A DNA stretch of 64,000 nucleotides from an uncultured Alphaproteobacteria bacterium (GTDB lineage Bacteria > Pseudomonadota > Alphaproteobacteria > Rhizobiales > Aestuariivirgaceae), in the NCBI GenBank assembly GCA_963850355.1, contig CAWKKP010000003.1, forward strand, positions 394,660-458,659, given 5' to 3'. The translations under genes and the position numbers were made by a program. Below the pieces are notes generated by a model. That model saw nothing but the letters and a program-made list of their open reading frames with translations. It was not told the origin of the DNA and did no database searches. How positions within the stretch are numbered: the stretch's first letter is position 1; each line of letters starts with the position of its first letter. Below are positions 5,393 to 52,771 of this stretch, piece after piece.

Positions 5393-5408
5393 AATTGATA
5401 TATCAGTT
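5393..5408. promoter_or_regulatory. Near-perfect palindrome, candidate operator
   Basis: AATTGATATATCAGTT (14 of 16 positions symmetric) in the intergenic region upstream of the SBP gene. Confidence 0.35.
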
Positions 5409-34365: not shown

Positions 34366-36435
34366 TTACTTCATCACACCCTTGCCACCTGGCACATCAG
34401 CCAGTGTGTTCGGGTACACTTCGTGTGACGCTTGCTTGTCCTTTGGCACATACACGCGCTCACGGATGATGTTATCTTCAGCCCAGTTGTACATGAAGAT
34501 TGGAGCGCCCGGCGCAATATTGGCAAAGCGCTTGTTCATGATGAGTGCACCTGGATACTGGGTCAGACCAGCCCAGTAGACATTCTCAGTCGCGATCTTC
34601 TGGTAGTCCTTCATCAAAGCAATACGTTCAGCTGTGTCTTTCGACGCGATGAACTTGTTGACGATCTCTACCAACTGCTTTTCGAAGTCGAGCAAATCAA
34701 CCTCACCCTTGCCGTCACCCGACTGATGGAACTCGCTGGTTGTTGGTCCGATTGGTGCCAGTCGTGCGGTGTTTTGCACAGCGGTCGACAGCTCCTGATT
34801 GGCGCGCCAGACGTGCCAGTCAAACTTGCCGGACTTGCGGGCGTTGTCGCGGTCATTGCCAGCCATCAGGTTGGGAATGATGCGCAGGCCGACTTGCTCA
34901 CCCATGGCGACGATGCCTTCGGCAAGAGACTTGTCTGAACCATAGTCCAAATTGCTCAACACTGTGATTTCAACATCCTTGCCACCATCTGGGTGGTTCA
35001 GAATACCGTTACCATCAGTGTCTTTCAAACCGGCGAGGGCAAATTCAGCTTTTGCGGCTTCCACATCGAACGGATAATAAACCGTCGAAGCTTTGTCGTA
35101 GTAGGTATTGTCGCCGTAAAGGCCGCCGGGATAAATCGCGGTGAACGGACCTTTCACCAATGACTCGCCCAAGCGTTGACGATCCAACATTGAGGTCACG
35201 CCTTTGCGGAAGTTCAGGTTGCGGTTCAACTTGCGCATCGACTTGGCGCGATCATCGGGTTCACCCCAGGCATTGTCGCTCAGGTTAAAGTGCAACACAT
35301 AGCCGATGGTGCGTTGGCCAAATTCAAGTCGGGCTGGTGAAGCAGGGTCAGCCGCTTTCTTGAGAGCTTCAACATAGTTTTCAGCTTGCTCAAGGTTTGA
35401 GAAGTCGCCTGTGCCTGCAACGGCTTGCACGTCACGATCGCCCCATGTGGACAAACGGTAATGCATTTCATTGAGGTAGGGCAGCTGCTGGCCAGTTTCG
35501 TCCACTTTCCAATAATAGGGATTGCGGCGCAGAATCACGATGTCATCGGGGCGGTGTTCAACCACAACCCAAGCACCCAGTGTTGGCATGCCCATATAGG
35601 ACGGACCAAAAGCATTCTTATACTGCTCATAGGTGTTCTTGGAATTCTTCGGATGCTGCGGCGCCAAGATATGCGACGGGCCAGGGCAGAAGTTCATGTA
35701 GGACATGGAATACAGAACTTGCGTCGGGAAGGCGTCCTTGAACGTCCACTTGATGGTGTAGGCATCAACTTTTTCAAGTTCGGTTCCAGCACCAAATGTT
35801 TCAACCGACTCACCACCCAAAGGATTGACCTCAGGATCTTTGATGTTGAATTCCCAGTGATACATGATGTCATCGGCGTCAAAAGCGTCACCGTCAGACC
35901 ATTTGGCACCTTCGATCAGCTTCATCGTCAATTGTTTGCCGTCAGCCGACCATTCCCAAGATTTGGCAACGTTTGGCAGCGGGGCCAATTCTTCAGCCTT
36001 CACCTGGAACAACGGTCCGGTGCGCGTCAGGCATTCCTGCAAACCAATGTCGATGCCGCCCCAACCTTGTGATTGACCAGCCCAATAGTTCCAACCCTCA
36101 GGACGACCACCAATGACGTGGCGCATAACATCGCCATAGACGCCAACGCCGTCTTTCATGTTGCCGGTTTTGTAAACCATTGGCTCTTTTGGCAGGCGGT
36201 CTTTCACAGCGGGCAGCTTGCCAGCGTCAACCAAAGCTTTCACAAAGTCTGGCTCGCTATAGGCAGGCAGCGCTTTATATTCGAGAATGTCGTTGATGCC
36301 GACAAAAGTGACTTTGCCTTGGGCATCGAACGCAGGCGCATCCGGCACGGCTGTCATCATGGCATCGGCCATGACAGCAGTTGCCGAAACACCCAACGCC
36401 AGCATGCCGGCGACAAGGGTTGTAATTTTTTTCAT
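34366..36435 (-). CDS. agpA: Alpha-galactoside-binding periplasmic protein (SBP family 5)
   Basis: Signal peptide; GVYGDVMRHVIGGRPEGWNY, QGWGGIDIG, CPGPSHIL and NWAEDNIIRERV closely match Sinorhizobium AgpA as I recall it; lies upstream of GH4 genes. Confidence 0.9.
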   Translation of the reverse strand: MKKITTLVAGMLALGVSATAVMADAMMTAVPDAPAFDAQGKVTFVGINDILEYKALPAYSEPDFVKALVDAGKLPAVKDRLPKEPMVYKTGNMKDGVGVYGDVMRHVIGGRPEGWNYWAGQSQGWGGIDIGLQECLTRTGPLFQVKAEELAPLPNVAKSWEWSADGKQLTMKLIEGAKWSDGDAFDADDIMYHWEFNIKDPEVNPLGGESVETFGAGTELEKVDAYTIKWTFKDAFPTQVLYSMSYMNFCPGPSHILAPQHPKNSKNTYEQYKNAFGPSYMGMPTLGAWVVVEHRPDDIVILRRNPYYWKVDETGQQLPYLNEMHYRLSTWGDRDVQAVAGTGDFSNLEQAENYVEALKKAADPASPARLEFGQRTIGYVLHFNLSDNAWGEPDDRAKSMRKLNRNLNFRKGVTSMLDRQRLGESLVKGPFTAIYPGGLYGDNTYYDKASTVYYPFDVEAAKAEFALAGLKDTDGNGILNHPDGGKDVEITVLSNLDYGSDKSLAEGIVAMGEQVGLRIIPNLMAGNDRDNARKSGKFDWHVWRANQELSTAVQNTARLAPIGPTTSEFHQSGDGKGEVDLLDFEKQLVEIVNKFIASKDTAERIALMKDYQKIATENVYWAGLTQYPGALIMNKRFANIAPGAPIFMYNWAEDNIIRERVYVPKDKQASHEVYPNTLADVPGGKGVMK

Positions 36436-36625
36436 CTATAGTCCTCCCAAAAGGTACCCGTTTTTTATGTGCACACGCGTTGTCCGCGATTTTAGATTAT
36501 AGTCGTGCTTGGACAGCGCGATGCGACCATGATCGCGCCAATAACGGCGAGCGACAATCCGAAAAACAAAACATTGGTTCCGGGTTTTTAAGATTGACAA
36601 AAATCTCCACCCAGCCGCTAATGTC

Positions 36626-37575
36626 GTGGTGAAGAAGCCAACACCCTCAACCGAAGTCATGTCGCCGGAGCGGCGGTTCTATTCCCGCAGCAAGGCGTTT
36701 GGCCGTTTCGGCATGCGTATTTTCAAGCCAACATTGATGGCTCATCCTCATTGGCATGGTCATGTCGAGGCAAACTTCGTCCGCAATGCCCGCTTACATT
36801 ATATCGTCGATGGTGAGCGCTTGGTTGTCGAGCCAAACCAATTGGTTTTATTTTGGGCTGGCGTGCCGCATCAACTGGTTGCTGTCGAAAACCTCGAAAA
36901 ATCAGAAGCTGAACTTTGCAATATCTACCTGCCGCTCGACACATTTCTGTTCATGCCCCACATCGCAAATTTGCAAGTCGCATTGCTCACTGGCGGCATG
37001 GTGGTTTTTCCGCACGATCTTTGTGTTTCGGACATTTTAAGCGATGGTACATTGATTACCGCGCCAATGATCCAGAACGATTGGACATTTTGAAACTGGA
37101 ACTCAGTGCCGTGTTTCGCCGCGTTGGTTTGGCTCCCTTGGAGTTTCTGAAAAAACCCTGGCAGCTCCAATCTGAATCCAACAGCTTGCATTCACCCCAT
37201 GTGCGCCATGTGGTAGCGATGGTGCGCCATGTGTTGGAAAATATTGCCGAGCCATTGCGCAATGAAAATGTGACCCGCGTTACGGGCCTTCATACCAACT
37301 ACGCACTGGTGCTTTTCACCCGCACCATGAACATTTCCTTGAAACAATTCATCATCCGCATGCGACTTCTAAAGGCCCGCGGCATGCTACTCGAAAGCGA
37401 TTTGGCCATTACGACGATTGCTGCTGAAAGCGGCTTTGGTTCAACAAGCCAGTTTTATGCGCATTTTTCAGCGGCCTATGATACCTCACCGCAACAATTG
37501 CGCGACAACTACCTGAAGTCCTCGGTCAAAGCGGCGTTGATAAACGCGCAACCCAGAAACGCGATTCCAGCCTGA
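36626..37575 (+). CDS. AraC-family regulator, MelR/AgpT-like (1-base deletion near 37035)
   Basis: Cupin HWHGHVEANF..FWAGVPHQL in 36626..37093; C-terminal HTH (GLHTNY..MRLLKAR..SGFGSTSQFY) in 36916..37575; divergent from agpA. Confidence 0.88.
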
Positions 37576-37582
37576 AGAACTT

Positions 37583-38335
37583 TCACGCCACCAATTGCGC
37601 AACGAGGGCATCAATCATGCGTGGCAGGTCATAGGGAAACCGTGCCGTGATCAAATTGCCATCCACCACGCAAGGTTCATCGATGACCGTGGCACCAGCA
37701 TTTTCGATATCAATTTGAATGTTCCAAACGGCAGTGGCCTTTTTGCCCTTCAGCATTTTTGCACTCACCATCACCCAAGGCCCATGGCAAATGCCGCACG
37801 TTGGTTTTCCAGCGGCATGCATATCTCGTACAAAATCTTGAGCAAGTTTATCGGCGCGCAGAAAATCGGGGTTCCAACAACCGCCCGGTAAAATAACAGC
37901 GTCGTAGTCTTTGACTTTCGCTTCATCCAGATAGGTATCAATTTTCAACCATCCCGCATTTTCCATCAGGCGTATGGCAAGCACATGGGTTTTGGTTTGT
38001 TCCGGAAAGCGCAAACCCAGCGTGGCCGGAAACTCACCAATACGTGGTGCAACAATATGAACAACAGCGCCATGCTCAGTCAGCCAACGCATCGACCCCA
38101 GAATTTCCACTTCTTCCACACCATTGGTGCAGCAGATCGCAATTTTCTTGCCTTTGAGCAAATTTGGATTGCTCGGCGGATCAAACAAAAAGCGATGCAG
38201 TTCCTGATTGAGATTGCCATCGGCCGTTGCCAACAATTCGGTCGATATGGAAGGCACTGGCGATGTGGACATGAACTGCTGCATGCGATGTAAAATAGCT
38301 TCGGTGGCCGTGGTGGGTGCGACTGGCTTGTTCAT
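37583..38335 (-). CDS. DJ-1/PfpI family protein (type 1 glutamine amidotransferase fold, glyoxalase/deglycase-like)
   Basis: NGVEEVE, YDAVILPGG, GICHGP (nucleophile Cys-His), DGNLITAR; ~60 aa N-terminal extension. Confidence 0.88.
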   Translation of the reverse strand: MNKPVAPTTATEAILHRMQQFMSTSPVPSISTELLATADGNLNQELHRFLFDPPSNPNLLKGKKIAICCTNGVEEVEILGSMRWLTEHGAVVHIVAPRIGEFPATLGLRFPEQTKTHVLAIRLMENAGWLKIDTYLDEAKVKDYDAVILPGGCWNPDFLRADKLAQDFVRDMHAAGKPTCGICHGPWVMVSAKMLKGKKATAVWNIQIDIENAGATVIDEPCVVDGNLITARFPYDLPRMIDALVAQLVA

Positions 38336-38428
38336 GGCAAACTCCCGTTTTTGAGATAGCGCAGCTTCCGATGTTTACGTGCTGTCGTCCAGAGAATTCA
38401 TTGACAAGTCAGCCATTCCGGATTGAAC

Positions 38429-38443
38429 TTTGATTCAATCAAA
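38429..38443. promoter_or_regulatory. Perfect 7-1-7 palindrome, candidate operator
   Basis: TTTGATT-C-AATCAAA between a TTGACA (38401-38406) and the GGGAG RBS of the epimerase gene. Confidence 0.45.
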
Positions 38444-38456
38444 AGCGGGAGTCGTC

Positions 38457-39305
38457 ATGAAATTTGGGTTCAACCTGTTGCTGTGGACACCCCACGTCAC
38501 GGCAGAGCATTTGCCAATTTTGCGCGCCCTGAAAAAGGCAGGTTATGACGGCGTGGAGATTCCAGTATTTGAAGGAACGCCCGAACATTATGCATGGCTG
38601 GGGGGCGAACTTGACAAGTTGGGGTTGGGGCGCACCACCGTCAGTGTGCTCGGTCCCGGTAATAATCCATTGTCATCTGACAAGGCCCAACAGAAGGCGG
38701 CCCTTGACCGGGCAAAGTGGGTCATTGATTGTAACGCCGCTTTGGGGTCCGAGATTCTAGGTGGACCCATGCATTCCGAACTTGGGTATTTTTCAGGAAA
38801 CCCCGCGACCAAGCAGGAGCGTGCCCGAGCCATTTCGTTCCACCGCAAAGCTGGTGACTATGCTGCCAAGAAAAACGTGCGCTTCGCCCTAGAAGCTCTC
38901 AATCGCTTTGAGTGCTATTTATTGAACACCATGGAACAACTGGGTGACTATCTCGACGAGGTTGACCACCCTGCAGTGAAAGCCATGTACGACACGTTTC
39001 ATTCTAACATCGAAGAAAAAGATCCAATTGCTGCCATCAAAACCATCAAGCGGCACCTCATCCATGTTCACATCTCAGAAAACGATCGCGGCACGCCCGG
39101 TCGCGGTCATTTGCCATTGGACGCAACTTACAAAGCTTTGAAGTCCGCCAAATACGATGGCTACATGACCATCGAAGCCTTTGGTCGTGCAATGCCTGCA
39201 TTGGCCGCAGCAACCCGCGTCTGGCGTGACTTCTTTCCAAACCGAGAACAAGTGTACCGCGAAGGCCTGAAAAACATGAAGCAGGGTTGGGCCAAAGCCC
39301 GATGA
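38457..39305 (+). CDS. Sugar phosphate isomerase/epimerase, D-psicose/D-tagatose 3-epimerase family
   Basis: GYDGVEIP, EALNRFECY, YDTFHSNIEE, HVHISENDRG and IEAF metal-binding pattern. Confidence 0.88.
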   Translation: MKFGFNLLLWTPHVTAEHLPILRALKKAGYDGVEIPVFEGTPEHYAWLGGELDKLGLGRTTVSVLGPGNNPLSSDKAQQKAALDRAKWVIDCNAALGSEILGGPMHSELGYFSGNPATKQERARAISFHRKAGDYAAKKNVRFALEALNRFECYLLNTMEQLGDYLDEVDHPAVKAMYDTFHSNIEEKDPIAAIKTIKRHLIHVHISENDRGTPGRGHLPLDATYKALKSAKYDGYMTIEAFGRAMPALAAATRVWRDFFPNREQVYREGLKNMKQGWAKAR

Positions 39306-40505
39306 CATTCCAAAGCCGTTTATGTTGTGGGAACCTTTGATACCAAAGGGGCCGAACTGACATATGCGGCAGAGCGGGTAGTCGCTGCAGGTGCCAAGGT
39401 CGTAACCGTTGATGTATCAACGACAACAAGTTCAACAATCTGCGATGTGTCGGCAGCGCAAATCGCATCCCATCATCCCGCGGGTTCTTCTGCAGTTTTG
39501 GGCCTAAGCGATCGTGGTGCTGCAGTAACGGCAATGGCCGAAGCGCTGACCGCATTTATGCTTCAGCAAAAAGACATTGGAGCAGTTTTGGGGCTTGGCG
39601 GATCTGGTAACACTGCCATCGTGACGGCTGCCATGCGGGCTCTGCCGGTGGGATTGCCTAAAATCATGGTCTCAACTTTGGCCTCTGGCAATGTTGCCCC
39701 TTTTGTTGGGCCGAGCGACATCATGATGATGCATGCCGTCGCAGATATTGCCGGGCTGAATACCATTACGAGGGCCGTGATAGGCAATGCCGCCCATGCT
39801 GCGGCGGGCATGGTGTTGAATGCAGTTCCGCAGTTTCCTCAATCCAAACCCTGCCTCGGCCTCACCATGTTTGGGGTCACAACCCAAGCCATCACACAAA
39901 TTCGTAATCACCTTGAAAACGATAACGAGTGTTTCGTGTTTCATGCCACGGGCACTGGCGGTCAGTGTTTTGAGAAACTGGTTGATTCAGGTTTTCTGAC
40001 GTCCGCTATTGATCTGACAACAACCGAAGTGGCTGATTATCTATTCGGTGGCATTCTTCCTTGTACAGATGATCGATTTGGATCTTTCATTCGCAAGAAA
40101 ATCCCTTACGTGGGCTCAGTCGGCGCGTTAGACATGATCAACTTTGGTCCGCGAGACACTGTTCCGGCACAACACCATGCCCGTAACCTCTACGTTCACA
40201 ATCCCGTGGTTACTCTGATGCGCACAAGCGTTGAAGAAAATGACGCAATTGGAAAGTGGATTGTCCAGCGATTGAACAAGATGGAGGGACCTGTGCGTTT
40301 TCTGCTGCCTCTCAAAAGCGTCTCAGCCATTGATGCACCGGGAAAGCCATTTCATGATCCCGAAGCAGATGCAGCACTTTTTGCGGCCATTCGAAAAGGC
40401 TGGAAATCCGCTGCCAATCGACAATTGATTGAAGTCGATGCCCACATCAACGATCTTGCATTCACGGACAGTGTTGTTGATGCTTACAATGAAATTCTGA
40501 AATGA
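39302..40505 (+). CDS. Tm-1-like ATP-binding domain protein (UPF0261) (1-base insertion near 39308)
   Basis: VVGTFDTKGAE, GLGGSGNT, LPVGLPKIMVST, TMFGVTT, FHATGTGG, DLTTTE and GALDMINF. ATG 39302 overlaps the upstream TGA and gives MTSKAVYVVGT after removing one T. Confidence 0.88.
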
Positions 40506-40511
40506 GGTCAC

Positions 40512-41342
40512 ATGCCAAAGTTTGAACGCAAAACGCTGCTTTCTAAATTCCAAGCCATGGTCAAGGCACGAAAGCCCATCATCGGCGGCGGGGCAGGGAC
40601 CGGCCTTTCCGCAAAATGCGAAGAAGCCGGAGGCATTGATCTTATCGTGATTTATAATTCGGGCCGCTACCGCATGGCAGGCCGTGGTTCACTCGCGGGC
40701 TTGCTGGCCTATGGCAACGCCAATGAGATCGTCAAGGAAATGGCCTACGAAGTTTTACCTGTCGTTTCGCACACCCCCGTGTTGGCTGGTGTTAATGGTA
40801 CCGACCCGTTCATGATAGTGGATCATTTTCTTGATGAGCTGAAAGCGCTGGGTTTTGCAGGGGTGCAAAATTTTCCAACGGTGGGATTGTTCGATGGCGT
40901 GTTTCGCAAAAACTTGGAAGAGACGGGCATGGGCTTTGGACTCGAAGTTGATATGATCAAAGCCGCGAATGCAAAAGACATGCTTACAACGCCTTACGTT
41001 TTCTCTGCTGACGAAGCTGTGGCGATGGCGAAAGCTGGTGCTGATATCATTGTGCCGCATATGGGCCTTACAACGGGCGGTGCCATTGGTGCAGAAACCG
41101 CACTGAAGCTCAAGGATTGTCCAGCTCTGATTGAGAAGTGGGCTGAGGCTGCACGTAAAGTTCGGAAAGACATCATTGTGTTATGTCATGGTGGACCCAT
41201 CTCTTCGCCGGAGGACGCCGCCTACATTTTGAAGAACACCGCAAACGTGCATGGCTTCTACGGTGCAAGTTCCTTGGAACGATTGCCAACCGAGACCGCA
41301 CTCATCCACCAAACCAAGGCCTTCAAGGCCATTTCATTCTAG
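40512..41342 (+). CDS. Phosphoenolpyruvate hydrolase-like TIM-barrel protein (TBST family)
   Basis: [50 protein letters not shown] and GASSLER; typical partner of UPF0261. Confidence 0.9.
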
Positions 41343-41351
41343 GGAAATATC

Positions 41352-42299
41352 ATGGCCCGTGCCTATGCCAGTGCAATAATCGATGCCCCCATTGAAACGG
41401 TATGGGGCGTTATTCGAGACTTTAACGGGCTGCCAAATTGGACGCCCTTTGTTGCAAAGTCGAAAATTGAAAGCGGCCTCGATGCCGATGTTGTTGGCTG
41501 CATCAGGTCATTTCATTTGCACAATGGCACCCATATTCGCGAACGCCTGCTGACGCTCGACGATGCGCGTCACACACTCACCTATAATTTCGAAAAACCC
41601 GCATTCCCGGTGAAGAACTACATCGCCACCATGCACTTGATGCCGGTGACCCAGAGTAACAAAACTTTTGCTGAATGGGAGGCGGTGTTTGACGAGGCCC
41701 CCGAAGAGCATGGCAAATATGAGAAAATCATTTCGAAAGAGGTCTTTGCAGCGGGATGGGCTGCCCTTAACGCTAAGCTGAAGCGGGAAAAACCAAAACC
41801 TCCAACTGGTGCCGTCCGCTGGAAAGGCGGCCAACCCAACAAGGTGTGGACCTCACGCGTTATCAAAGTCCCAAGTGAAAAAGTATGGGCCGTGATGCGT
41901 AACTTTGCGGGCATGGGCGCTTGGCACAGTGACATCACCAAAATGCACATGTTGAAACGCGCGCGTTCTGACAAGGTATCTGGCATTCGGGACTTTTATT
42001 TCGGTGCAGGGCATTTGAATGAAGAATTGCTGCACCTCTGCGACATCACCAAATCCTTCTCCTATCGGATCACCAAAAGTGAATTGCCATGGATCAATTA
42101 TGTGTCGGGTCCGCGGCTATGGCCCGTGACATCGAGCAACACAACATTTGGTGTTTGGACCGGGGATTGGCAGGCCAGTCCGCAAGATGATTTAACGCTG
42201 ATGCCCAACACCGAGCAGAATGTTTACCAACGGGCCTTTGCCGGGGTGGAGCAACTCATCGCGGGGAAAAGCAAGAACCGGACGGCGAAGTTAGGATAG
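41352..42299 (+). CDS. Protein with two tandem SRPBCC (START/Bet v1-like) domains
   Basis: Domain 1 IDAPIETVWGVIRDFNGLPNW..GCIRSF..IRERL..LTY; domain 2 IKVPSEKVWAVMRNFAGMGAW..GIRDF..LNEEL..FSY. Confidence 0.8.
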   Translation: MARAYASAIIDAPIETVWGVIRDFNGLPNWTPFVAKSKIESGLDADVVGCIRSFHLHNGTHIRERLLTLDDARHTLTYNFEKPAFPVKNYIATMHLMPVTQSNKTFAEWEAVFDEAPEEHGKYEKIISKEVFAAGWAALNAKLKREKPKPPTGAVRWKGGQPNKVWTSRVIKVPSEKVWAVMRNFAGMGAWHSDITKMHMLKRARSDKVSGIRDFYFGAGHLNEELLHLCDITKSFSYRITKSELPWINYVSGPRLWPVTSSNTTFGVWTGDWQASPQDDLTLMPNTEQNVYQRAFAGVEQLIAGKSKNRTAKLG

Positions 42300-42443
42300 G
42301 CGTTTAAACCCATAATAAGAACCGCAGAGACGGATCTGTTGGTTCGGCCAGGGGGTAGTAGCGTAGGATTTAAAAGCTTCTGTAGGACGACGCCAGGTAC
42401 CCTGCCGGTCATTTCAATCGTAGGTTTAAAGACCTACGTCATC

Positions 42444-42773
42444 TCAATCTGTATGAAACACACTTTCCGCGCTCGCCCACCACTCCCCAGCCTTGCGCGT
42501 TTCAAGCGGCACCTGCATCGGGTCGGTGATATCCCACCATTCCTGCATGCGCGGCGCTGATTTGATGCGCTCCATATCACCGTCATAGTCCGTACCCACA
42601 TACTCCCAATAGGAGATCAGCAAGTTTTCAGGCTCTTTGAGAAAAATACTGTAGTTGCGCACATTGCTGTCGGCGATGGCTTTAAGAATTTCAGGCCATA
42701 CTGCGGCATGTATGCGTTTGTACTCAGGAATGATCTCTGGTTTCACAGCGATAATGCGGCACATTCTTTCCAT
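42444..42773 (-). CDS. L-rhamnose mutarotase family protein
   Basis: EYKRIHAAVWPE, NYSIFL and QEWW motifs; ATG 42773 with GAGG RBS; 109 aa. Confidence 0.88.
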   Translation of the reverse strand: MERMCRIIAVKPEIIPEYKRIHAAVWPEILKAIADSNVRNYSIFLKEPENLLISYWEYVGTDYDGDMERIKSAPRMQEWWDITDPMQVPLETRKAGEWWASAESVFHTD

Positions 42774-42783
42774 AGGCAGTCCC

Positions 42784-43476
42784 TCAATAGGTGGCGCGAC
42801 CGCCTGAAATGTCAAACACAGCACCCGTGGAGAATGAGCATTCCTCACTGGCAAGCCAGCAAATCAAACTGGCCACTTCGTCTACCGTGCCAAATCGCGG
42901 CTTTGGAATTTTGGCCAGCATGAAGTCGATATGCGCTTGCGGCATCTGATCAAATATCGGCGTGCGCACAGCAGCAGGTGTTACGGCATTCACGGTGATA
43001 TTGGTTTTAGCAAGTTCCTTGGCCAATGATTTGGTAAATCCAATCACCCCAGCCTTTGACGCGGAATAGGCGGAGGCATTGGGGTTGCCTTCCTTTCCTG
43101 CAATCGACGCCACATTGACGATGCGGCCATAATTCTGCGCCACCATGATCGGCACCACAGCTTTGTTGGTAAAGAATGTTCCATTCAAATTGATGGCGAT
43201 GGTCTGCATCCATCCGTCAACAGGAAACTCGGTCACCGGCACAGTTGGCCCAGTGATGCCCGCACTGTTTACCAGAATATCAATGCCACCAAGTTGCTTC
43301 AAAGTCTGTGAAACGGCATTCGCAACTGAAGTGACATCGGAAATATCGGTGATGATAGCGCCATTCATATCCCAAATGGCCACACGACCACCTTCGCTTT
43401 CAATGCGTTGAGCAACGGCTTCACCGATGCCTGAAAGCCCCCCTGTGACGACCGCACGCTTACCTGTAAATCTCAT
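42784..43476 (-). CDS. SDR oxidoreductase, similar to 2-keto-3-deoxy-L-rhamnonate 4-dehydrogenase (LRA5) type
   Basis: TGGLSGIG, NSAGITG, ASIAGKEGNPNASAYSASK (YxxxK) and C-terminal DISGGRATY. Confidence 0.82.
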   Translation of the reverse strand: MRFTGKRAVVTGGLSGIGEAVAQRIESEGGRVAIWDMNGAIITDISDVTSVANAVSQTLKQLGGIDILVNSAGITGPTVPVTEFPVDGWMQTIAINLNGTFFTNKAVVPIMVAQNYGRIVNVASIAGKEGNPNASAYSASKAGVIGFTKSLAKELAKTNITVNAVTPAAVRTPIFDQMPQAHIDFMLAKIPKPRFGTVDEVASLICWLASEECSFSTGAVFDISGGRATY

Positions 43477-43510
43477 AACTCAGTTTCCCATTTTCTCATG
43501 GAGTAACAGT

Positions 43511-43942
43511 TCAGCTTTTCTTGGATCGCATCCAAATCAAAAGTGCGAGAACTGTTGCAACGCCAGCAACACTCCACACAAAGGGATGTGCATAAAACTT
43601 CGTCGCAGCCAACATTGCCTTTCCGGAAGTTGTGTTCGGATCAGGTGGTTTCAGGAAAAACACGCCATAAAGATGCGCCGCTGCAATCGACACAACGAGC
43701 ACAATGCAAAACACCATGGCCACCACCATGGCGATCGTAATGACGGAACGCGTTTGCACACCAGGTTGTGCCAAAGGCAAAAGATTATTGATCAAACCCG
43801 CAAGTACCACAAGAATGGCACCCAATGAAAACAGGCCGATGCTGAAGGGTTGAAAAATCAGGATCAACGCCACAATGCCAAGACCGATGATTGAATACTC
43901 CATGCGCCGTGCGCCCACATTGCTCAATGCACCATTGCTCAT
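43511..43942 (-). CDS. Small integral membrane protein of unknown function
   Basis: 143 aa with ~4 hydrophobic segments; ATGA overlap with the upstream ATPase stop. Confidence 0.78.
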   Translation of the reverse strand: MSNGALSNVGARRMEYSIIGLGIVALILIFQPFSIGLFSLGAILVVLAGLINNLLPLAQPGVQTRSVITIAMVVAMVFCIVLVVSIAAAHLYGVFFLKPPDPNTTSGKAMLAATKFYAHPFVWSVAGVATVLALLIWMRSKKS

Positions 43943-45027
43943 GCGCGCACCGCCTTTCCATCTTGCCCAAAGACATGAGTTTGCGAGGGGTCTAGCTTGA
44001 GCGTCAACGCCTCACCCGTTTTCACCTTTTTCTCACGCGCCACTACAACACGAATGTCATTGCCCTGTTTTGTGCGCGCGTGAATGAGGGTTTCGGCCCC
44101 CATGGGTTCAATCAATTCCGCAACGGCTGAAATTGTATCGGAACCTTTTACTGAAACCGGAATAAACGCGCGCGGACGAATGCCGATGGTAATTTTTCCA
44201 CGCTCCAATTTGCCAACTGCTGGGTTAGCTGCGAGTTTGATTTGTTGATCGCCCAATCGTAAATCTGCAACGCCACTGTTGTAAGCGCTGAAGTCTGCTT
44301 CAACCAAATTCATTTGCGGTGTGCCAATAAAGCTGGCCACAAACACATTGGCAGGTTTTGCAAACACTTCATGTGGCGAGCCAACTTGTTCAATCAATCC
44401 ATCGCGCATGATGGCGATGCGATCTGCCATCGTCAGCGCCTCGAGCTGATCGTGTGTTACGATCACCGTAGCCTTCGACAGATTAGACAGCACCTGTTTG
44501 ATTTGTCCACGCATGGAATGCCGCAACTCTACATCGAGACGCGACAGTGGTTCATCGAACAGAAAGCAATTGGGATCGCGCACAATCGCACGCGCAACGG
44601 CAACACGTTGCTTTTCGCCCTCGGACACTTGCCCGGGCAAACGGCCTAACACGTCCTTGAGATGCAGAATGTCAGCGACTTTGTTGACTCGCGCTTCGAC
44701 CTCTGCTGCTCCAAGTTTTTCATAGTGCAGAGGCATGGCAATGTTTTCGCCAACGGTTAGCGCGGGATAGAGCGCATAGAATTGGAACACCATGGCGATG
44801 TCTCGTTTTTCAGGCGGCAGCGCATTCATGTTATGACCACCAATGATCACTTCACCTGACGTCGCGCGTTCAAGTCCTGCGATCATCCGCAGTGTGGTTG
44901 TTTTGCCGCAGCCTGATGGCCCGAGCAGGCATACGACTTCGCCAGCATTCACCGACAAATCAGCATCGCGCACGGCGGTAAACTCACCGAATTTCTTTGT
45001 GATCTTTTTGATTTCGATTGTCGACAT
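43939..45027 (-). CDS. Sugar ABC transporter ATP-binding protein (degenerate signature)
   Basis: GPSGCGKT, LFDEP and VTHDQ are canonical, but the signature reads VSEGE. Confidence 0.93.
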   Translation of the reverse strand: MSTIEIKKITKKFGEFTAVRDADLSVNAGEVVCLLGPSGCGKTTTLRMIAGLERATSGEVIIGGHNMNALPPEKRDIAMVFQFYALYPALTVGENIAMPLHYEKLGAAEVEARVNKVADILHLKDVLGRLPGQVSEGEKQRVAVARAIVRDPNCFLFDEPLSRLDVELRHSMRGQIKQVLSNLSKATVIVTHDQLEALTMADRIAIMRDGLIEQVGSPHEVFAKPANVFVASFIGTPQMNLVEADFSAYNSGVADLRLGDQQIKLAANPAVGKLERGKITIGIRPRAFIPVSVKGSDTISAVAELIEPMGAETLIHARTKQGNDIRVVVAREKKVKTGEALTLKLDPSQTHVFGQDGKAVRA

Positions 45028-45028
45028 G

Positions 45029-45973
45029 TCAGCGCTTTACCGTTCCGAATGTAACGCCGCGCAGCAATTGGTCCTGCAGGAAGAACGTCACGAAAAACAC
45101 CGGGATCAAAAACAGCGTTTCGATGGCTGCAAGCAATCCCCACAACACACCAATACCACCACCACCCACAGCCTGACTCATGCCCACAGGTACGGTGCGC
45201 GTATCAACGCCTGTGAGGAGGAGGGCGAACAGAAACTCGTTCCACGTGAGAATAAGTCCGAACACAAATGTTGCTGCAAGGCCCGCCAAGACTTGAGGCA
45301 GACAAATTTTAAAGAAGACTTTGATGTCAGATGAACCATCAATGCGTGCAGCATCTTCAACATCCAATGAAAGTTCATCAAAGAAACTCTTCATCATCCA
45401 GATCGTGAATGGTAAATTGAATGCGGTGTAAAGCAGAATAATGCCGATGTATGATCCCGATAGACCTGTCACCCGGAACATCAAGATGACAGGAATGATC
45501 ACAACGATGGCAGGTAACATGCGCGTTGTCAGGATGATAAAGAGATAAGTGTCATTGCCTTTTAAGGGATAACGCGAAAAGCCAAAAGCCGCGAGTGTGC
45601 CGATGACGAGAGCCAGAAAAACCGACACGCCTGCAATCACAAGAGAATTGAAAAAATACTTTGCAAAGCCAGTATTCTCAACCACGCCACCCGATGTCAT
45701 GGCACGTGAAAACACCGATGTGTAATTTTCCAGTGTCGGCGTGAAGGTAAGATGTTCAGGGATCAATCCAAAGAACGTAGTGGGGAAGAACTTAGGCGGA
45801 ATGGCCAGCGCTTCAGTCTGAACTTTGAAGCTGGTGATGATGATCAACAGAACGGGCAAAAAGTAAATCAAGCTGATGACACCAGCAAACAGAGTCTGCC
45901 CCCAGCCAGCTTCGCTCACGCCAGAGGCTTTGCGAAAGCCAAGCTTTTCCCAGAGGGATGAAGACGCAGCCAT
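45029..45973 (-). CDS. Carbohydrate ABC transporter permease (MalG-like)
   Basis: EDAARIDG EAA loop, WNEFLFA and TM helices. Confidence 0.92.
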   Translation of the reverse strand: MAASSSLWEKLGFRKASGVSEAGWGQTLFAGVISLIYFLPVLLIIITSFKVQTEALAIPPKFFPTTFFGLIPEHLTFTPTLENYTSVFSRAMTSGGVVENTGFAKYFFNSLVIAGVSVFLALVIGTLAAFGFSRYPLKGNDTYLFIILTTRMLPAIVVIIPVILMFRVTGLSGSYIGIILLYTAFNLPFTIWMMKSFFDELSLDVEDAARIDGSSDIKVFFKICLPQVLAGLAATFVFGLILTWNEFLFALLLTGVDTRTVPVGMSQAVGGGGIGVLWGLLAAIETLFLIPVFFVTFFLQDQLLRGVTFGTVKR

Positions 45974-47037
45974 CAGTTTGCTCCTTCGCTGCGCCGATTG
46001 GCGATGTAGAGGTAAAGATTGGTGAGCACGATCACAATGAACAGCATGACGTAGGATATTGCAGCGCTTTCGCTGGTTTTGTTTTGCTCACTGGCAAGAC
46101 GTTGGAGATGATAGGCAATGGTCATCGTATCATTGCCGCCCTTGGTGAGCAGCTGCACCATGTCGGAAAGTTTAAACGCTTCAATGGTGCGGAACAATAG
46201 TGCGAGCATGAGAAGGCTGCGGATATAGGGGAACGTGATGCTCCAAAACCGACGCCAACTTGAAACCCGGTCGATGGCAGCTGCTTCATAAAGATATTTC
46301 GGCACCGACACGAGACCAGCAAGCACGAGCAGCATGACGAAGGGCGACCACATCCACGCGTCAGCAAACACGATACCCGCAACGGCACCGGCCTTATTGT
46401 CCATCAAGATAAACTGTTGGTCAGTGAAAAGACGAATAAAATAACTGAGCAATCCAAATGTGGGATCGTAATAGTATGAAAAGAACACACCCGCAGCGAC
46501 AACCGACAGCATCATCGGTGTCAGCACGAGAATAAGAAGATACTTGCGCAACGGAAACTGTTTGGAGAACAGCAACGCCAGCAGAAATCCAACAATCATT
46601 TGAGCTGCAACCGTCAGCACCACGAACATTGCTGTGTTGACAAGGTTGGCCCAGTTCTCAGGTGCCTTCAAATCATCGGTCAACACTTTGGTGTAATTGG
46701 TAAGACCAACAAAGCGAATGGTCTGCTGGTTGGATTGATAGGCGAAGAAAGAAAGGCCCAAAGACCAGAGCAACGGAAAGATGTTCATCACAAACAAAAC
46801 CGCAATAGCGGGAGCGACCAAGAGGCCACCATAATTATGCCTGCGAAAGGCGTTGACGGTGATAGCTGCAGCAACAAGTGCGGCCATGGCACCCACTGTC
46901 CAAAAGGAAGCAGCAGCGGGGAGTGTTGCAATAGCAACGGCTGAAACAACGAGCCCTGCCAAAATGGCGAGCTTCCAGTTGTCGGGCCGCAGCGTGAAAA
47001 GACTTTGCGTTGGTGCGATGTCGAGTGTTGCGGTCAT
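45973..47037 (-). CDS. Carbohydrate ABC transporter permease (MalF-like)
   Basis: EAAAIDR EAA loop, WMWSPF and RTIEAFK. Confidence 0.92.
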   Translation of the reverse strand: MTATLDIAPTQSLFTLRPDNWKLAILAGLVVSAVAIATLPAAASFWTVGAMAALVAAAITVNAFRRHNYGGLLVAPAIAVLFVMNIFPLLWSLGLSFFAYQSNQQTIRFVGLTNYTKVLTDDLKAPENWANLVNTAMFVVLTVAAQMIVGFLLALLFSKQFPLRKYLLILVLTPMMLSVVAAGVFFSYYYDPTFGLLSYFIRLFTDQQFILMDNKAGAVAGIVFADAWMWSPFVMLLVLAGLVSVPKYLYEAAAIDRVSSWRRFWSITFPYIRSLLMLALLFRTIEAFKLSDMVQLLTKGGNDTMTIAYHLQRLASEQNKTSESAAISYVMLFIVIVLTNLYLYIANRRSEGAN

Positions 47038-47120
47038 GCGACGGTAAAATGCCTAAAGATGAAATGTTCCCCGACGTTGCCGAAGTGCGCGGGGAATTCG
47101 ACGACAATTTGAGTGACGAA

Positions 47121-47154
47121 CAAATGTGCGCAGCACGATCACTGCGCACATTTG
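47121..47154. terminator. Perfect 13-bp hairpin downstream of the SBP gene
   Basis: CAAATGTGCGCAG-N8-CTGCGCACATTTG; a second TTCCCCG..CGGGGAA stem lies at ~47067-47097. Confidence 0.65.
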
Positions 47155-47162
47155 CAAGAGTG

Positions 47163-48596
47163 TTACTTGATCAATCCAGCTTCCGTCAGCAAGTTCTGTT
47201 GGAACTTGGCAACATTGTCCAAAGTGGTCTTGGCGTCTTGTTTGCCGGTGATGGCAAGGTCGAACTGGTCTTGCTGTTGCGTCAGCAGTTCAAAGAACTG
47301 TGGCACGTGCCACACGTCTTTTTGCCAATCCAGCGAGGCCGCCCAAGCGCGGTTCCAAGGACGATACGTCACATACTTTGGATCGGTAAACACCGACTTC
47401 ATGGCAGACTGACCACCTGATGCAGCAAACTGATGCTGAATTTCAGGCGACAACCACCACTTCACGAAGCCCATGGCTTCGGTCAGCTGTTCTGGTGTGG
47501 TCCATGTGGTGAGCACGAATGGCTGACCACCGATGTTGGACCAACGCACCATCTTGCCATCAGCACCCATTGTGCCGGGAGCCATGCCGAACACCAACTT
47601 GTCAGAGACTTTTGACGTCTTCGGATCAAGCGAGGCTTCGCCAAGACCAATCCAGTCAATGTTCATGGCAACTTTGCCTTCACGGAACAATTCGTCTGAC
47701 TTGAAAATGTCCATCGTGCCGGTTTTTGCCACAGGCGGCATCAGATCAATGAAGCTCAAGTAGCTTTCCAAAGCCTTCACTGCTTCTGGTGAGTTCACAA
47801 CGCCTTCAGCTTGTCCTGTTGGTTGCTTGGTTTCATCCCACGTGCCACCACCCATTTGCCAAATGAAGCCGTTGATCTGCATCGACGAGAAGTCGTAGCC
47901 TTTACCGGCTTGGAATGCGATGCCGTAGAAATCATCATCGGCAGGTTTGCCTGCAAGCATTTCACCTTTTTTGCGTTTGAAGAAAACGCCAACATTCTTG
48001 AAGTCGTCCCAAGTCATGGCGTCAAGTTCTTCGCCCGTGCAGGGAAGCTTCTTGCTGAACTTTGCCATGAAGGCTTTCTGTTCGTCTTCATTGCAAAGAA
48101 TGTCAGAGCGGCCAAAATTCACCAAAACGTCGGGGAATTGTGGGAAGCCATAATAGTTCGGCGTCGAGTTTGGATAGGTCGAATAGGCATTCAGCGGCGC
48201 TGGATGCATATCAGCCATGGTCTTTTGCAATTCAGGATCGGCATCAATCAAGTCGTTCACTTTGCGGAAATAACCACCTTCAACAAAGGCACCCAACCAT
48301 TGCGAATCCGAAACGGCGAAATTGTATTTCTGTTCGCCCGATGTCAGCGATGCGTTGACGCGCGTATAGAAATCTGGCCATGGAATGAAATCGACTTCGA
48401 GTTTAACGGTGTTGCCGGTTTTCGATTTGTACTGCTCGTCGAACATCTTTTTCATGATGCGCGTTGGTGGCCAATCCGGCACAGCCATTGTCAATGTCAC
48501 TTCGCCAGCAAACGCGTTCAGCGCGCCGCCAACGGTCAGCGATGCAGCAAAGGCAATCCCCGCCACAATGCTTTTGGTTTTTGTCATATAGCTCAT
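47163..48596 (-). CDS. Sugar ABC transporter substrate-binding protein
   Basis: ATG 48596 with GGAGG RBS; signal peptide MSYMTKTKSIVAGIAFAASL..AFA; family 1 SBP features. The ORF-track start at 48788 overlaps the ATPase and is over-called. Confidence 0.9.
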   Translation of the reverse strand: MSYMTKTKSIVAGIAFAASLTVGGALNAFAGEVTLTMAVPDWPPTRIMKKMFDEQYKSKTGNTVKLEVDFIPWPDFYTRVNASLTSGEQKYNFAVSDSQWLGAFVEGGYFRKVNDLIDADPELQKTMADMHPAPLNAYSTYPNSTPNYYGFPQFPDVLVNFGRSDILCNEDEQKAFMAKFSKKLPCTGEELDAMTWDDFKNVGVFFKRKKGEMLAGKPADDDFYGIAFQAGKGYDFSSMQINGFIWQMGGGTWDETKQPTGQAEGVVNSPEAVKALESYLSFIDLMPPVAKTGTMDIFKSDELFREGKVAMNIDWIGLGEASLDPKTSKVSDKLVFGMAPGTMGADGKMVRWSNIGGQPFVLTTWTTPEQLTEAMGFVKWWLSPEIQHQFAASGGQSAMKSVFTDPKYVTYRPWNRAWAASLDWQKDVWHVPQFFELLTQQQDQFDLAITGKQDAKTTLDNVAKFQQNLLTEAGLIK

Positions 48597-48645
48597 ACTC
48601 TGTTTCCTCCATTGATGAACTGTATTTGCTTCCTGCCGCTGTTCG

Positions 48646-49731
48646 TCATGTGAGAGCCTGACCATTTGCAGCATTGAAGATGTGGAACTTTTTGGGATCA
48701 ATATAAATGTCAGCCATTTGGCCGGGTTGAATGGCAAGCGCGCTGCTTTCCGGCACCACCATGCGTAATGTTTCGCCTGCAGCTTCAACAGAGATCACGG
48801 TGATATCGCCCAGTGGCTCCAGCATTTGTACGCGAGACTTGGTTGCAGCTTCGCCTTTTTGGGCAAAGCGAATATCACTGGGCCGGATGCCAAGGAATGC
48901 CGCTTCGCCAGTTTGAACAGATTTCAGTTTCGCTTTCGGCACTATGGTACCGAGTGACGTCTCAAACGCGCCCTTGTTGGCTTTGGCCTTGATCATATTC
49001 ATGTGCGGCGAACCAATTTTTCCGGCCACATAAATATCGCTCGGGTTTTCATAAAGCTCGTCCGGCGTGCCCTGTTGGACAACAGCCCCATCCCGCATGA
49101 CGGCAATTTCTTCACCCATCGACAATGCTTCAAGCTCGTCAGGTGTTGCATAAACAATCGTCATGCCAAACTGGCGGTGTAAGCGTTTCAACTCGGCGCG
49201 CATGTCGTGGCGGAGTTTCGCATCAAGATTTGTCAGAGGTTCATCAAGCAGCAGAATTTTAGGACGGCGGATGAGCGAGCGACCCAAAGCCACGCGTTGT
49301 TGTTCACCACCTGATAAGGTGCTGGGCTTGCGTTCTAACCTTGGCAGAAGCTTTAGCATGGTGGCGGTTTCTTTCACCCGCTTGTCGATGTCTTCACGCG
49401 CTACACCTTCTTCGCGCAAAGGATAGGCGAAATTCTCATAGACGGTGAGATGCGGATAAAGCGCAAAAGACTGAAACACCATCGACACCCCGCGACCCGC
49501 GATAGGTGCCGCCGTGTGGTCTTGTCCAAATATATCAACGCGGCCAACATCGGGGCGCACCAATCCTGCAATTGTTCTTAAGGTCGTGGTTTTGCCAACA
49601 GAGCTTGGTCCAAACAGCACGAAGAAGCGGCCATCAGCAACTTCGAAGGAGAGGTTCTCAAGTGCGCGCACCGAACCATAGGATTTGGAAACCCCTGATA
49701 ATCGTAACGCTGGTGTCGTCGCTTCAGACAT
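48646..49731 (-). CDS. Sugar ABC transporter ATP-binding protein (degenerate Walker A and H-loop)
   Basis: GPSSVGKT, LSGGEQQR and LLDEP, with H-switch YATPD; ATG 49731 with GAGG RBS. Confidence 0.92.
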   Translation of the reverse strand: MSEATTPALRLSGVSKSYGSVRALENLSFEVADGRFFVLFGPSSVGKTTTLRTIAGLVRPDVGRVDIFGQDHTAAPIAGRGVSMVFQSFALYPHLTVYENFAYPLREEGVAREDIDKRVKETATMLKLLPRLERKPSTLSGGEQQRVALGRSLIRRPKILLLDEPLTNLDAKLRHDMRAELKRLHRQFGMTIVYATPDELEALSMGEEIAVMRDGAVVQQGTPDELYENPSDIYVAGKIGSPHMNMIKAKANKGAFETSLGTIVPKAKLKSVQTGEAAFLGIRPSDIRFAQKGEAATKSRVQMLEPLGDITVISVEAAGETLRMVVPESSALAIQPGQMADIYIDPKKFHIFNAANGQALT

Positions 49732-49803
49732 CAAACCATCCTCGATGCAACTGGAAGCAATTGAGACTAACCCGCCGTTTGAAACATGCAAGCCCTGAGT
49801 TGA

Positions 49804-51995: not shown

Positions 51996-52053
51996 GTCCT
52001 CGCAGATTGTGCAACTCCATCCACAGTAGGACGACTTTAGGCTTGCTGTCTAC

Positions 52054-52077
52054 AACTGTTATATTAGTATGACAGTT
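52054..52077. promoter_or_regulatory. Imperfect 24-bp palindrome, candidate GntR/FadR operator
   Basis: AACTGTTATATTAGTATGACAGTT (20 of 24 symmetric), directly upstream of the GntR ATG in the divergent promoter region. Confidence 0.55.
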
Positions 52078-52771
52078 ATGCAAAAACTACTCCGCGAAAC
52101 CCGGCTTGATCGTAAAGCGCCGCTTGCGAGAGCAAATTTACACCTTGATTAGAAGCCTGATTTTAACAGGGAAAATCGGCCCCAGCGAAGTCATTGACGA
52201 GAAAGAAATTGCTTCACTCCTGAAGATTTCACGAACGCCCGTGCGCGAAGCCGTGAAAAAACTGAGTGACGAACACCTTGTCGACGTTGTCGCGCAATCG
52301 GGTACGCGCGCGTCTCGCATTGACCGCCATGAAGTGGAGCAAGCCTTCTTGATTCGCCGCGCATTGGAAATGGAAATCGCGGGACTGGCGGCCCTTCGCA
52401 TGTCGCAAATTCATGTCGATGCTTTGTCGGACATATTGATTGCTCACGCACGAGCCATTGAACGCAAAGACTTTATTGAGGCCATTGCCATTGACGATCG
52501 GTTTCACCGCACAATTGCTGAGATCAGCAATATGCCACGCCTGTGGCGTGCAATTGAAATTTCAAAAGCCCAACTTGACCGTTGCCGTTACATGATGCTG
52601 CCGCGCTCAGGCGAAGCTGAAGCAACACTTGAACAACATCGTGAAATCATCCGTGCATTGAACAGTAGAGATCCTGAACGCGCAAGACTTGCCATGGGTT
52701 CTCATCTTGAAAAGGCATATAGCAATGCGGCCAAAGTGCTTGATGCCGAATTGAAGAAGACCGGCAACTAA
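52078..52771 (+). CDS. GntR/FadR-family regulator with FCD domain (1-base insertion near 52125)
   Basis: ISRTPVREA wHTH, DDRFH and EQHREI; ATG 52078 gives MQKLLRETRLDRKAPLREQIY after removing one T. Confidence 0.9.

Follow-up and report, generated by a model that had tools for sequence, protein, structure and literature searches.

Proteins of the UPF0261 and PF09370 families occur widely, in bacteria as well as in fungi and plants. Among UPF0261 proteins, an activity has been demonstrated only for MarK, the 'multiple aromatic kinase' described in 2025 (Saro_1862 of Novosphingobium aromaticivorans, PDB 9MPY), which uses ATP to phosphorylate phenolic hydroxyls and releases ADP (PMC12624787). 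MarK is a homodimer whose gene adjoins acetovanillone carboxylase genes, and no PF09370 TIM-barrel partner is reported for it. In plants, a UPF0261 part and a PF09370 barrel (TBST) are the two halves of Tm-1, a classic resistance protein (PMC5028733); PDB matches agree with this assignment, which an earlier note on the DNA studied here had already made. Here we describe a bacterial locus in which the two halves are encoded by adjacent genes, between a ketose-3-epimerase-type gene and a gene with two SRPBCC domains. It lies in a stretch of 64,000 nucleotides (nt), hereafter the window, on contig CAWKKP010000003.1 of an uncultured, Aestuariivirga-like alphaproteobacterium of freshwater or soil (Aestuariivirgaceae; assembly GCA_963850355.1). 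Four same-strand open reading frames (ORFs) span positions 38457-42299 of the window, and their products were assigned unambiguously by Pfam and NCBIfam profile searches:

38457..39305 (+): EPI, a ketose-3-epimerase-type, xylose-isomerase-like TIM barrel of 282 amino acids (aa) (PF01261, 137 bits)
39306..40505 (+), open frame: UPF0261 (Tm-1 N-half/MarK family), ATP-binding and kinase-type (PF06792, 193 bits; PF23189, 287 bits)
40512..41342 (+): PEPH, a PEP_hydrolase-like TIM barrel of 276 aa (TBST; Tm-1 C-half type) (PF09370, 432 bits)
41352..42299 (+): SRP2, one 315-aa gene with two SRPBCC domains (PF10604 in two stretches, 119.8 bits)

The tight packing of the four genes is real, as the ORFs and family matches confirm, and the gaps given for it previously, 6 nt between UPF0261 and PEPH and 9 nt between PEPH and SRP2, are exact in the sequence. 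The four genes do not constitute an operon by themselves; together they make up one half of a sugar locus of about 14 kb with the order GntR / TIM-Gfo/Idh/MocA-CUT1 importer-SDR-mutarotase, convergent with SRPBCC-PEPH-UPF0261-epimerase / DJ-1. In this order, TIM is a second xylose-isomerase-like barrel and Gfo/Idh/MocA (Gfo) an oxidoreductase. The locus can be described as a Tm-1/MarK-type module in split form, joined by a fused SRPBCC protein and set inside a conserved sugar locus.

The UPF0261 frame belongs to its family over the full length, with PF06792 in the N-terminal and PF23189 in the C-terminal part and a score of 573 bits against NF002673 (cutoff 520). It is nearer to tomato Tm-1 (3WRY, 310 bits) than to MarK (9MPY, 204 bits). 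The two-domain fold is common to MarK and the window protein, whose D-T-K ATP loop (GTFDTKG) carries the Lys (MarK K16, Tm-1 K20) that activates MarK (E16K). The equivalents of His219 (in FVFHATG), Gly195 and His304 are kept as well, so that three of the acetovanillone contacts of MarK (G195, T196, H219, F283, I285, H304 and H348) are retained, namely the G and two of the H residues. Across 51 UPF0261 sequences from all contexts, D14, T15, K16, G195, H219, M283, N285 and H304 (MarK numbering) were invariant, position 196 was V in 50 of the 51, and position 348 was I or L. The pocket motifs of Tm-1 (PDB 3WRV-3WRY) are nearly identical to those of the window protein (GLTMFGVTT/ALDMINFGP/VHNP/SAIDAPG). 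The acvCDEF/hpeCBAD carboxylase genes to which MarK is linked were not found among the window neighbours. PEPH corresponds to the C-terminal TBST barrel of Tm-1 (PMC5028733). Plant Tm-1 is one fused polypeptide, whereas the window carries the halves as separate, translationally coupled genes with the 6-nt gap between them.

Conservation of the cluster was examined in a sample of 29 genomes of its genus, taken to be Aestuariivirga. The exact order EPI-UPF-PEPH-SRP2 occurs in 16 of them and partial versions occur in nine; therefore, the linkage of the four genes is far beyond chance, and the conservation on which the earlier note had made its case depend holds within the genus. UPF0261, PEPH and SRP2 are all missing in four genomes, three of which keep only weak matches to the EPI family. 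The flanks are constant in the genus, with DJ-1/PfpI on one side and, on the other, the operon TIM-Gfo-CUT1-143-aa ORF-SDR-mutarotase, divergent from GntR. In one member (G023, locus L022), the enzyme genes form a single co-directional operon, TIM-Gfo-SDR-EPI-UPF-PEPH-SRP2-mutarotase. In another (G009), the sole PEPH gene lies on a different contig, 34 nt downstream of an adenine-deaminase-like amidohydrolase gene (597 aa; L036:8846-11500). Neither the neighbours of this solitary PEPH nor those of a relocated pair (G001; resolvase/RepB) gave a functional clue.

The wider survey covered 301 genomes of the order Hyphomicrobiales, in which only trios and pairs, and not the exact four-gene order, were found outside the genus. 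PEPH is present in 109 of the 301 genomes (69-84% identical) and UPF0261, counted at E <= 1e-30 with distant paralogs included, in 117, nearly always adjoining PEPH; the pair is thus present in about 36-39% of the sampled genomes. Close SRPBCC homologs occur in 88 of the 301. An ABC importer normally precedes the pair directly or is divergently oriented to it, and SRPBCC genes come after the pair. In the commonest arrangement (about 65 genomes) the importer is of the Liv type, and ORFs of 740-790 aa join its LivF ATPase in frame with a complete UPF0261. Downstream follow PEPH, a flotillin/SPFH protein (870-1010 aa), two SRPBCC genes and a molybdenum hydroxylase set, CoxM-CoxS-CoxL(split)-CoxD-CoxE. 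Examples of the LivF::UPF0261 fusion, which belongs to a large conserved Hyphomicrobiales operon, are L042:6203-8434, L040:7158-9446 and L030:8024-10261. Four genomes (G313, G183, G188 and G310) have both a LivF-fused and a standalone UPF0261, with only one close PEPH (about 70%), beside the standalone copy; where checked in such genomes, the gap after the LivF-fused copy is about 2.7-2.9 kb, which fits flotillin alone. A second arrangement consists, in this order, of a sigma-54 activator with an N-terminal PF09370 sensor, a Liv importer, UPF0261, PEPH and a single or fused SRPBCC gene. One such enhancer-binding protein (PF09370, Sigma54_activat and HTH_8) is encoded at L055:14976-16901 (-), and others in L051, L053, L056 and L057; the PF09370 sensor of these activators explains the old name 'TIM-barrel signal transduction protein'.

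In a third arrangement, seen in at least five other genera, a standalone UPF0261-PEPH pair is found with orthologs of the window sugar genes. In G180 and G140, for example, the operon UPF-PEPH-TIM-Gfo-EPI-SDR is divergent from a CUT1 importer, and its TIM and Gfo proteins are 64% and 67% identical to those encoded at 50943-51995 and 49804-51003 of the window. TIM orthologs were found in 12 genomes of the order outside the genus. PEPH lies within 3 kb of TIM in eight of these, against about 0.02 expected by chance, and in two more EPI and/or UPF0261 are beside TIM. A wider search for TIM returned 80 loci. In these, TIM and Gfo form a tight pair that is almost always adjacent and is 64-78% identical across at least six phyla, namely Bacteroidota, Planctomycetota, Acidobacteriota, Verrucomicrobiota, Chloroflexi and Poribacteria. 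Roughly one in four of the non-proteobacterial TIM-Gfo loci has an EPI ortholog (42-55%) no farther than 10 kb away; in flavobacteria, MFS-EPI-ThuA-like is divergent from TIM-Gfo-Zn-ADH-NAD-epimerase-Gfo. Among the 80 loci, UPF0261/PEPH are found beside TIM-Gfo in Alphaproteobacteria and in a single Granulosicoccus, and nowhere else.

A maximum-likelihood tree of 51 UPF0261 sequences grouped the genus copies with sigma-54/Liv-type loci carrying a fused SRPBCC gene (G298 and G233; support 100/99) and placed the other sugar-locus copies in a separate clade (support 100/99). Because two separate, well-supported UPF0261 clades sit at TIM-Gfo-EPI loci, the UPF0261-PEPH pair was recruited to this type of locus at least twice independently, and this repeated recruitment is the strongest argument for a functional linkage. 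These distributions also show EPI to be a regular member of the TIM-Gfo sugar module and UPF0261-PEPH to be a portable two-gene unit, the split form of Tm-1. The four genes are a composite of the sugar-module epimerase and a portable UPF0261-PEPH-SRPBCC trio, and not a primary unit.

The EPI protein has the xylose-isomerase-like barrel and the four metal/catalytic residues (E-D-H-E) of ketose 3-epimerases; E146, D179, H205 and E240 were invariant in 43 orthologs. It has the TIM-barrel family and the E/D/H/E spacing in common with the D-psicose 3-epimerase (DPEase) of A. tumefaciens (2HK0) and its kin, and its spacing is identical to the DPEase positions, which we take to be 150/183/209/244. 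D-tagatose and D-allulose 3-epimerases in PDB match EPI at 100-115 bits. Its best NCBIfam match is D-psicose 3-epimerase; because it scores only 148.9 bits against an equivalog cutoff of 300, EPI is predicted to be a relative of psicose epimerase and not psicose epimerase itself. Compared with the known ketose 3-epimerases, it forms an orthologous group of its own, linked to the TIM-Gfo pair. Its substrate is probably a keto-sugar intermediate instead of free psicose.

Of the remaining two proteins, PEPH covers positions 3-267 of the 267 of the PF09370 profile and matches Mll9387 of Mesorhizobium loti (PDB 2P10), the founder structure of PF09370, over the whole length at 413 bits. By sequence, PEPH and this family member probably have the same function; the match names the fold of PEPH and not its reaction. 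SRP2 is a Polyketide_cyc2-type SRPBCC protein that matches PF10604 twice, with 33% identity between its two halves. Downstream of UPF0261-PEPH, other Hyphomicrobiales have two SRPBCC genes, SRPa and SRPb; the N-domain of SRP2 is the ortholog of SRPa, the first of them (48% identity to SRPa of G046/G200), and the C-domain shows 31% identity to each of the two. A search for SRPBCC homologs returned only close relatives (71-83%) and hence no distant context, and the PDB relatives of SRP2 are uncharacterised SRPBCC proteins. For three of the four proteins of the cluster, the structure of a close homolog has been solved.

The four genes had been described as lying in a catabolic region, which the catabolic and transport genes around them bear out, and as having no transporter or regulator of their own, which is misleading. 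The convergent operon has a CUT1 importer and a GntR regulator, and in other genera its orthologs, UPF0261-PEPH and the epimerase are encoded together in one operon. The neighbouring features are as follows:

37583..38335 (-): DJ-1/PfpI-family gene (PF01965, 140 bits; TIGR01382, 118 bits, under cutoff)
38422..38439 (no strand): palindrome ATTGAA-N6-TTCAAT with 6-nt arms, under the repeat-finder threshold (minimum length 8)
42444..42854 (-): rhamnose-mutarotase-like gene (TIGR02625, 44.6 bits, under cutoff)
42784..43476 (-): SDR gene (SDR Pfam matches)
43511..49791 (-): 143-aa ORF without family, then the CUT1 ABC importer (profile searches and synteny)
43939-45027 (-): ATPase of the CUT1 importer (profile match)
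45029-45973 and 45973-47037 (-): permeases of the CUT1 importer (profile match)
47163-48788 (-): binding protein of the CUT1 importer, 541 aa (profile match)
48646-49791 (-): second ATPase of the CUT1 importer (profile match)
49804-51003 (-): Gfo/Idh/MocA oxidoreductase, levoglucosan-dehydrogenase-like (PDB 4H3V, 329 bits; 6A3F, 261 bits)
50943-51995 (-): xylose-isomerase-like TIM barrel, 350 aa (PF01261, 40 bits)
52055..52068 (+): GntR-type operator ACTGTTATATTAGT in the GntR-TIM intergenic region
52106..52771 (+): GntR regulator gene (profile match)

The DJ-1/PfpI gene, divergent from EPI, borders the locus throughout the genus; its orthologs in relatives (77-87% identical) adjoin EPI or GntR-TIM. 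The mutarotase and SDR genes form the tail of the convergent operon. The CUT1 importer stretch is syntenic in the genus and in loci of Rhodovulum, Amaricoccus and Granulosicoccus. This importer has two MalK-type ATPase genes (43939-45027 and 48646-49791), as do the CUT1 importers found divergent from UPF-PEPH in other genera, which are not its orthologs. An AraC gene at 36916-37575 was considered as regulator of the cluster and rejected; it is MelR-like and was judged to be part of the upstream alpha-galactoside operon. No Rfam match to a riboswitch or non-coding RNA was found in 36000-53000.

The TIM barrel and the Gfo/Idh/MocA oxidoreductase (49804-51995) are the core pair of the sugar module. 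The 350-aa barrel had no PDB or NCBIfam match. Gfo scored 320 bits against NF052479, below the cutoff of 650 for levoglucosan dehydrogenase (LGDH), to which it is related. A relative of LGDH, xylose-isomerase-like barrels and an ABC importer are common to the locus and to the levoglucosan pathway (LgdA/LgdB1/LgdB2/LgdC) and ThuAB-type 3-keto-sugar routes, whereas these described pathways are without UPF0261, PF09370 or SRPBCC proteins. Because its relatives are levoglucosan dehydrogenase and its neighbours ThuA-like, the TIM-Gfo module looks like a route of 3-keto-sugar type oxidation/elimination.

Upstream of EPI, a -35-like TTGACA is located at 38401-38406, about 50 nt before the epimerase start, and (A)TTGACA(A) recurs at equal distance upstream of EPI in most relatives. 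The consensus promoter scan called no full promoter at 38401-38406, and promoter and terminator scans gave matches no more numerous than in shuffles. A ribosome-binding site, GGGAG, lies at 38447-38451. The palindrome previously placed before the operon did not hold up as a regulatory feature, since it consists only of the sub-threshold ATTGAA-N6-TTCAAT at 38422-38439, and relatives have TCCGGATTGATCT or the operator ACTG-n-TATA-n-CAGT at this site instead. It was rejected as an operator, being too short for the repeat finder and not conserved; perhaps it is what decay has left of the GntR-type operator that four relatives have at this site. The GntR-type palindrome ACTGnTATAnCAGT sits in the GntR-TIM intergenic region (52055-52068) and also just upstream of EPI in these four relatives (G019, G007, G020 and G254); upstream of EPI in the genome of the window itself, no match within 2 mismatches was found. 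A second near-perfect GntR-type palindrome (ATTGATATATCAGT) is located at 5394-5407 of the window.

The start of the UPF0261 gene needs separate consideration. The ATGA overlap with EPI noticed earlier is present (ATG at 39302), but its ATG is out of frame with UPF0261, and the break suspected at about 39308 is real in the assembly. The stop codon of EPI, TGA at 39303-39305, belongs to the UPF0261 frame, in which no start precedes GTG 39327; translation from there would give MGTFDTKG, and the first beta-strand before the ATP loop would be lost. Position 1 of the Pfam profile already aligns at residue 3 of the stop-to-stop translation, and all 11 aligned relatives encode M-x(2-5)-(Y/H)(V/I)(I/V)G here, the start codon being 3-6 codons upstream of the conserved (Y/H)(V/I)(I/V)G. 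Relative to them, the reading frame of the window gene is shifted by one base within its first codons, and the assembly contains no intact N-terminus with the first beta-strand behind a start codon. Read-through of the TGA, fusing EPI to UPF0261, was ruled out by the frame relation, which is not kept in relatives.

Two explanations of this discrepancy can be compared. In the 19 kb of the window that are comparable with relatives, a second frame break is found in a DAK-like kinase gene (52777-54406, -) near 52945-52960; it is supported by several relatives and lies about 13 kb from the break in UPF0261. Because these two breaks occur within 19 kb of an 8-contig assembly, assembly indels are favoured, and an indel seems a more likely cause of the UPF0261 discrepancy than a true pseudogene. 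The alternative is that UPF0261 is a genuine recent pseudogene in this strain and that the cluster is decaying here. This has a substantial but clearly smaller chance of being right. It would account for the lack of an in-frame start before GTG 39327, for the out-of-frame ATG 39302 and for the loss of the first beta-strand; the gene is also the only UPF0261 copy of its genome (one match in the whole assembly), and three genomes of the genus have lost the UPF-PEPH pair at the locus. Decay is harder to reconcile with the remainder of the gene, which is open for 392 codons with all conserved motifs intact. The DAK-type gene, with a Dak1/Dak2-like C-terminus, is convergent with GntR; relatives encode one protein of about 545 aa, and in the window the last 55 or so residues fall in another frame.

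Taken at about even probability, our preferred reading is that the four genes are an ATP-dependent, kinase-type metabolic module forming the accessory half of a sugar-catabolic locus. In this scheme UPF0261 would act as MarK does, its D-T-K loop binding ATP and the protein transferring, with the conserved His, a phosphoryl group to a hydroxyl of a small molecule. PEPH, its TIM-barrel partner, would bind or convert either the substrate or the corresponding phosphate ester, and the fused SRPBCC didomain would hold or shield the ligand. The kinase step is proposed by analogy with one homolog, MarK, and the roles of PEPH and SRP2 are suggested by the fusion in plant Tm-1, by adjacency and by fold. 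Because the UPF0261 pocket is near-invariant in all contexts and in Tm-1, and PEPH is 69-84% identical, one common reaction would be expected everywhere, and the pair most likely acts on one common, probably reactive, hydrophobic or enolic intermediate and not on each imported sugar. The GntR operator common to the TIM-upstream and EPI-upstream regions in four relatives was counted in favour of a role in the sugar locus. The small-molecule pathway proposed earlier, of kind unspecified, can thus be narrowed to the TIM/Gfo-Idh-MocA sugar locus, while the sensing module proposed beside it is a minority reading.

Several observations weigh against the kinase-type sugar module. Within the genus, six of the 29 genomes have EPI-UPF-SRP2 with PEPH elsewhere (two of them inferred from fragmented contigs), and three have EPI-SRP2 without the pair; these three carry a xenologous UPF-PEPH pair elsewhere, adjoining resolvase/RepB genes. 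Rhodovulum and Amaricoccus have a TIM-Gfo-ABC-mutarotase operon without UPF0261/PEPH within 10 kb, and the same is true of about 65 non-proteobacterial TIM-Gfo loci. Therefore, the pair is not obligatory for the pathway. It also occurs in many unrelated contexts, such as the Liv importer/flotillin/Cox-like operons, and varied contexts combined with an invariant pocket fit a generic or regulatory role equally well. The aromatic specificity of MarK is not conserved, since four of the seven acetovanillone contacts differ (T196V, F283M, I285N and H348I); at all four positions the window protein agrees with tomato Tm-1. The sole UPF0261 copy of the genome is without a proper start in the assembly. 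Finally, a literature search on UPF0261-PF09370 returned only the MarK and Tm-1-origin papers and no biochemistry of the pair. The earlier statement that the bacterial pair has no established function is thus still apt for the pair, on which we found no paper, but not for the UPF0261 family, in which MarK has a demonstrated kinase activity (PMC12624787).

The invariant pocket could also mean that UPF0261-PEPH senses a metabolite or the energy state and accordingly adjusts either transcription or the ABC importer next to it, instead of catalysing a step of the pathway. We regard this as improbable, though worth keeping in mind; what keeps it as a minority reading is the use of the PF09370 barrel as N-terminal sensor domain by sigma-54 activators in related loci with UPF0261, PEPH and SRPBCC genes. 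In most sampled Hyphomicrobiales, moreover, UPF0261 is fused in frame to a LivF-type ATPase, and the pair almost always adjoins an ABC importer, although in genomes of types B and C it lies apart from the importer. The window proteins have no DNA-binding or other output domain, the identity among PEPH proteins (69-84%) is typical of an enzyme, and the only characterised UPF0261 protein, MarK, is a true kinase (PMC12624787). Chance juxtaposition would instead make the epimerase a part of the sugar locus and the UPF0261-PEPH-SRPBCC trio an unrelated portable insert in the genus. The many different neighbourhoods of the pair, and TIM-Gfo operons that work without it in other taxa, are what such an insert would leave behind. 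We consider it rather unlikely, however, in view of the two phylogenetically separate UPF0261 lineages at TIM-Gfo-EPI loci, the proximity of PEPH to TIM in eight of 12 genomes outside the genus, the single operons of G023 and G180/G140 and the operator shared by both regions in four relatives.

An anti-phage function, by analogy with the inhibition of tobamovirus replication by Tm-1, is hardly credible. Homology to Tm-1 is the only point in its favour, and the window genes have no virus context; the antiviral action of Tm-1 is itself a derived binding property of one tomato allele (PMC5028733). No PADLOC family matched the four proteins apart from one insignificant 13-bit match, conservation across the order is very high instead of showing diversifying turnover, and the genes are constantly found in transport/catabolic operons; the window offers neither a defence-island nor a mobile setting. 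The remark in the earlier note that nothing directly supports defence is borne out by the PADLOC result, the order-wide conservation of PEPH and the transport/catabolic setting.

Within the preferred reading of a kinase-type module, a more specific reaction can be imagined. The two-component phenol/hydroxyphenylethanone kinases HpeHI and AcvAB, phenylphosphate synthase and PEP synthase combine an ATP-binding component with a PEP/pyruvate-type TIM barrel to phosphorylate an enolic or phenolic hydroxyl (PMC12624787). These enzymes are not homologous to UPF0261, and the likeness is one of resemblance only. HpeHI/AcvAB, phenylphosphate synthase and PEP synthase are dikinases that yield AMP; MarK yields ADP. 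By this analogy, UPF0261 and PF09370 might form a two-component, PEP-synthase-like 'enol/phenol kinase' in which ATP is used to trap a reactive enolic intermediate and the SRPBCC didomain carries the labile or hydrophobic ligand. The trapped compound could be, for example, a 2-hydroxy-3-keto-glycal-type enone or an aglycone released from 3-keto-sugar oxidation/elimination. The proposal is speculative, and we hold it to be slightly less probable even than chance juxtaposition. If it were true, plant Tm-1 would have had this reaction as its ancestral biochemical function, and the LivF::UPF0261 versions would phosphorylate the compound at the pump.

The locus ties the split pair, twice independently, to a widely conserved sugar module made of TIM, Gfo/Idh/MocA and a ketose-3-epimerase-type enzyme. 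This narrows the search space for the substrate to the intermediates of one pathway, and the compact UPF-PEPH-TIM-Gfo-EPI operons are suited to genetics and in-vitro reconstitution. The biochemistry of the UPF0261-PF09370 pair could therefore be approached from this locus.

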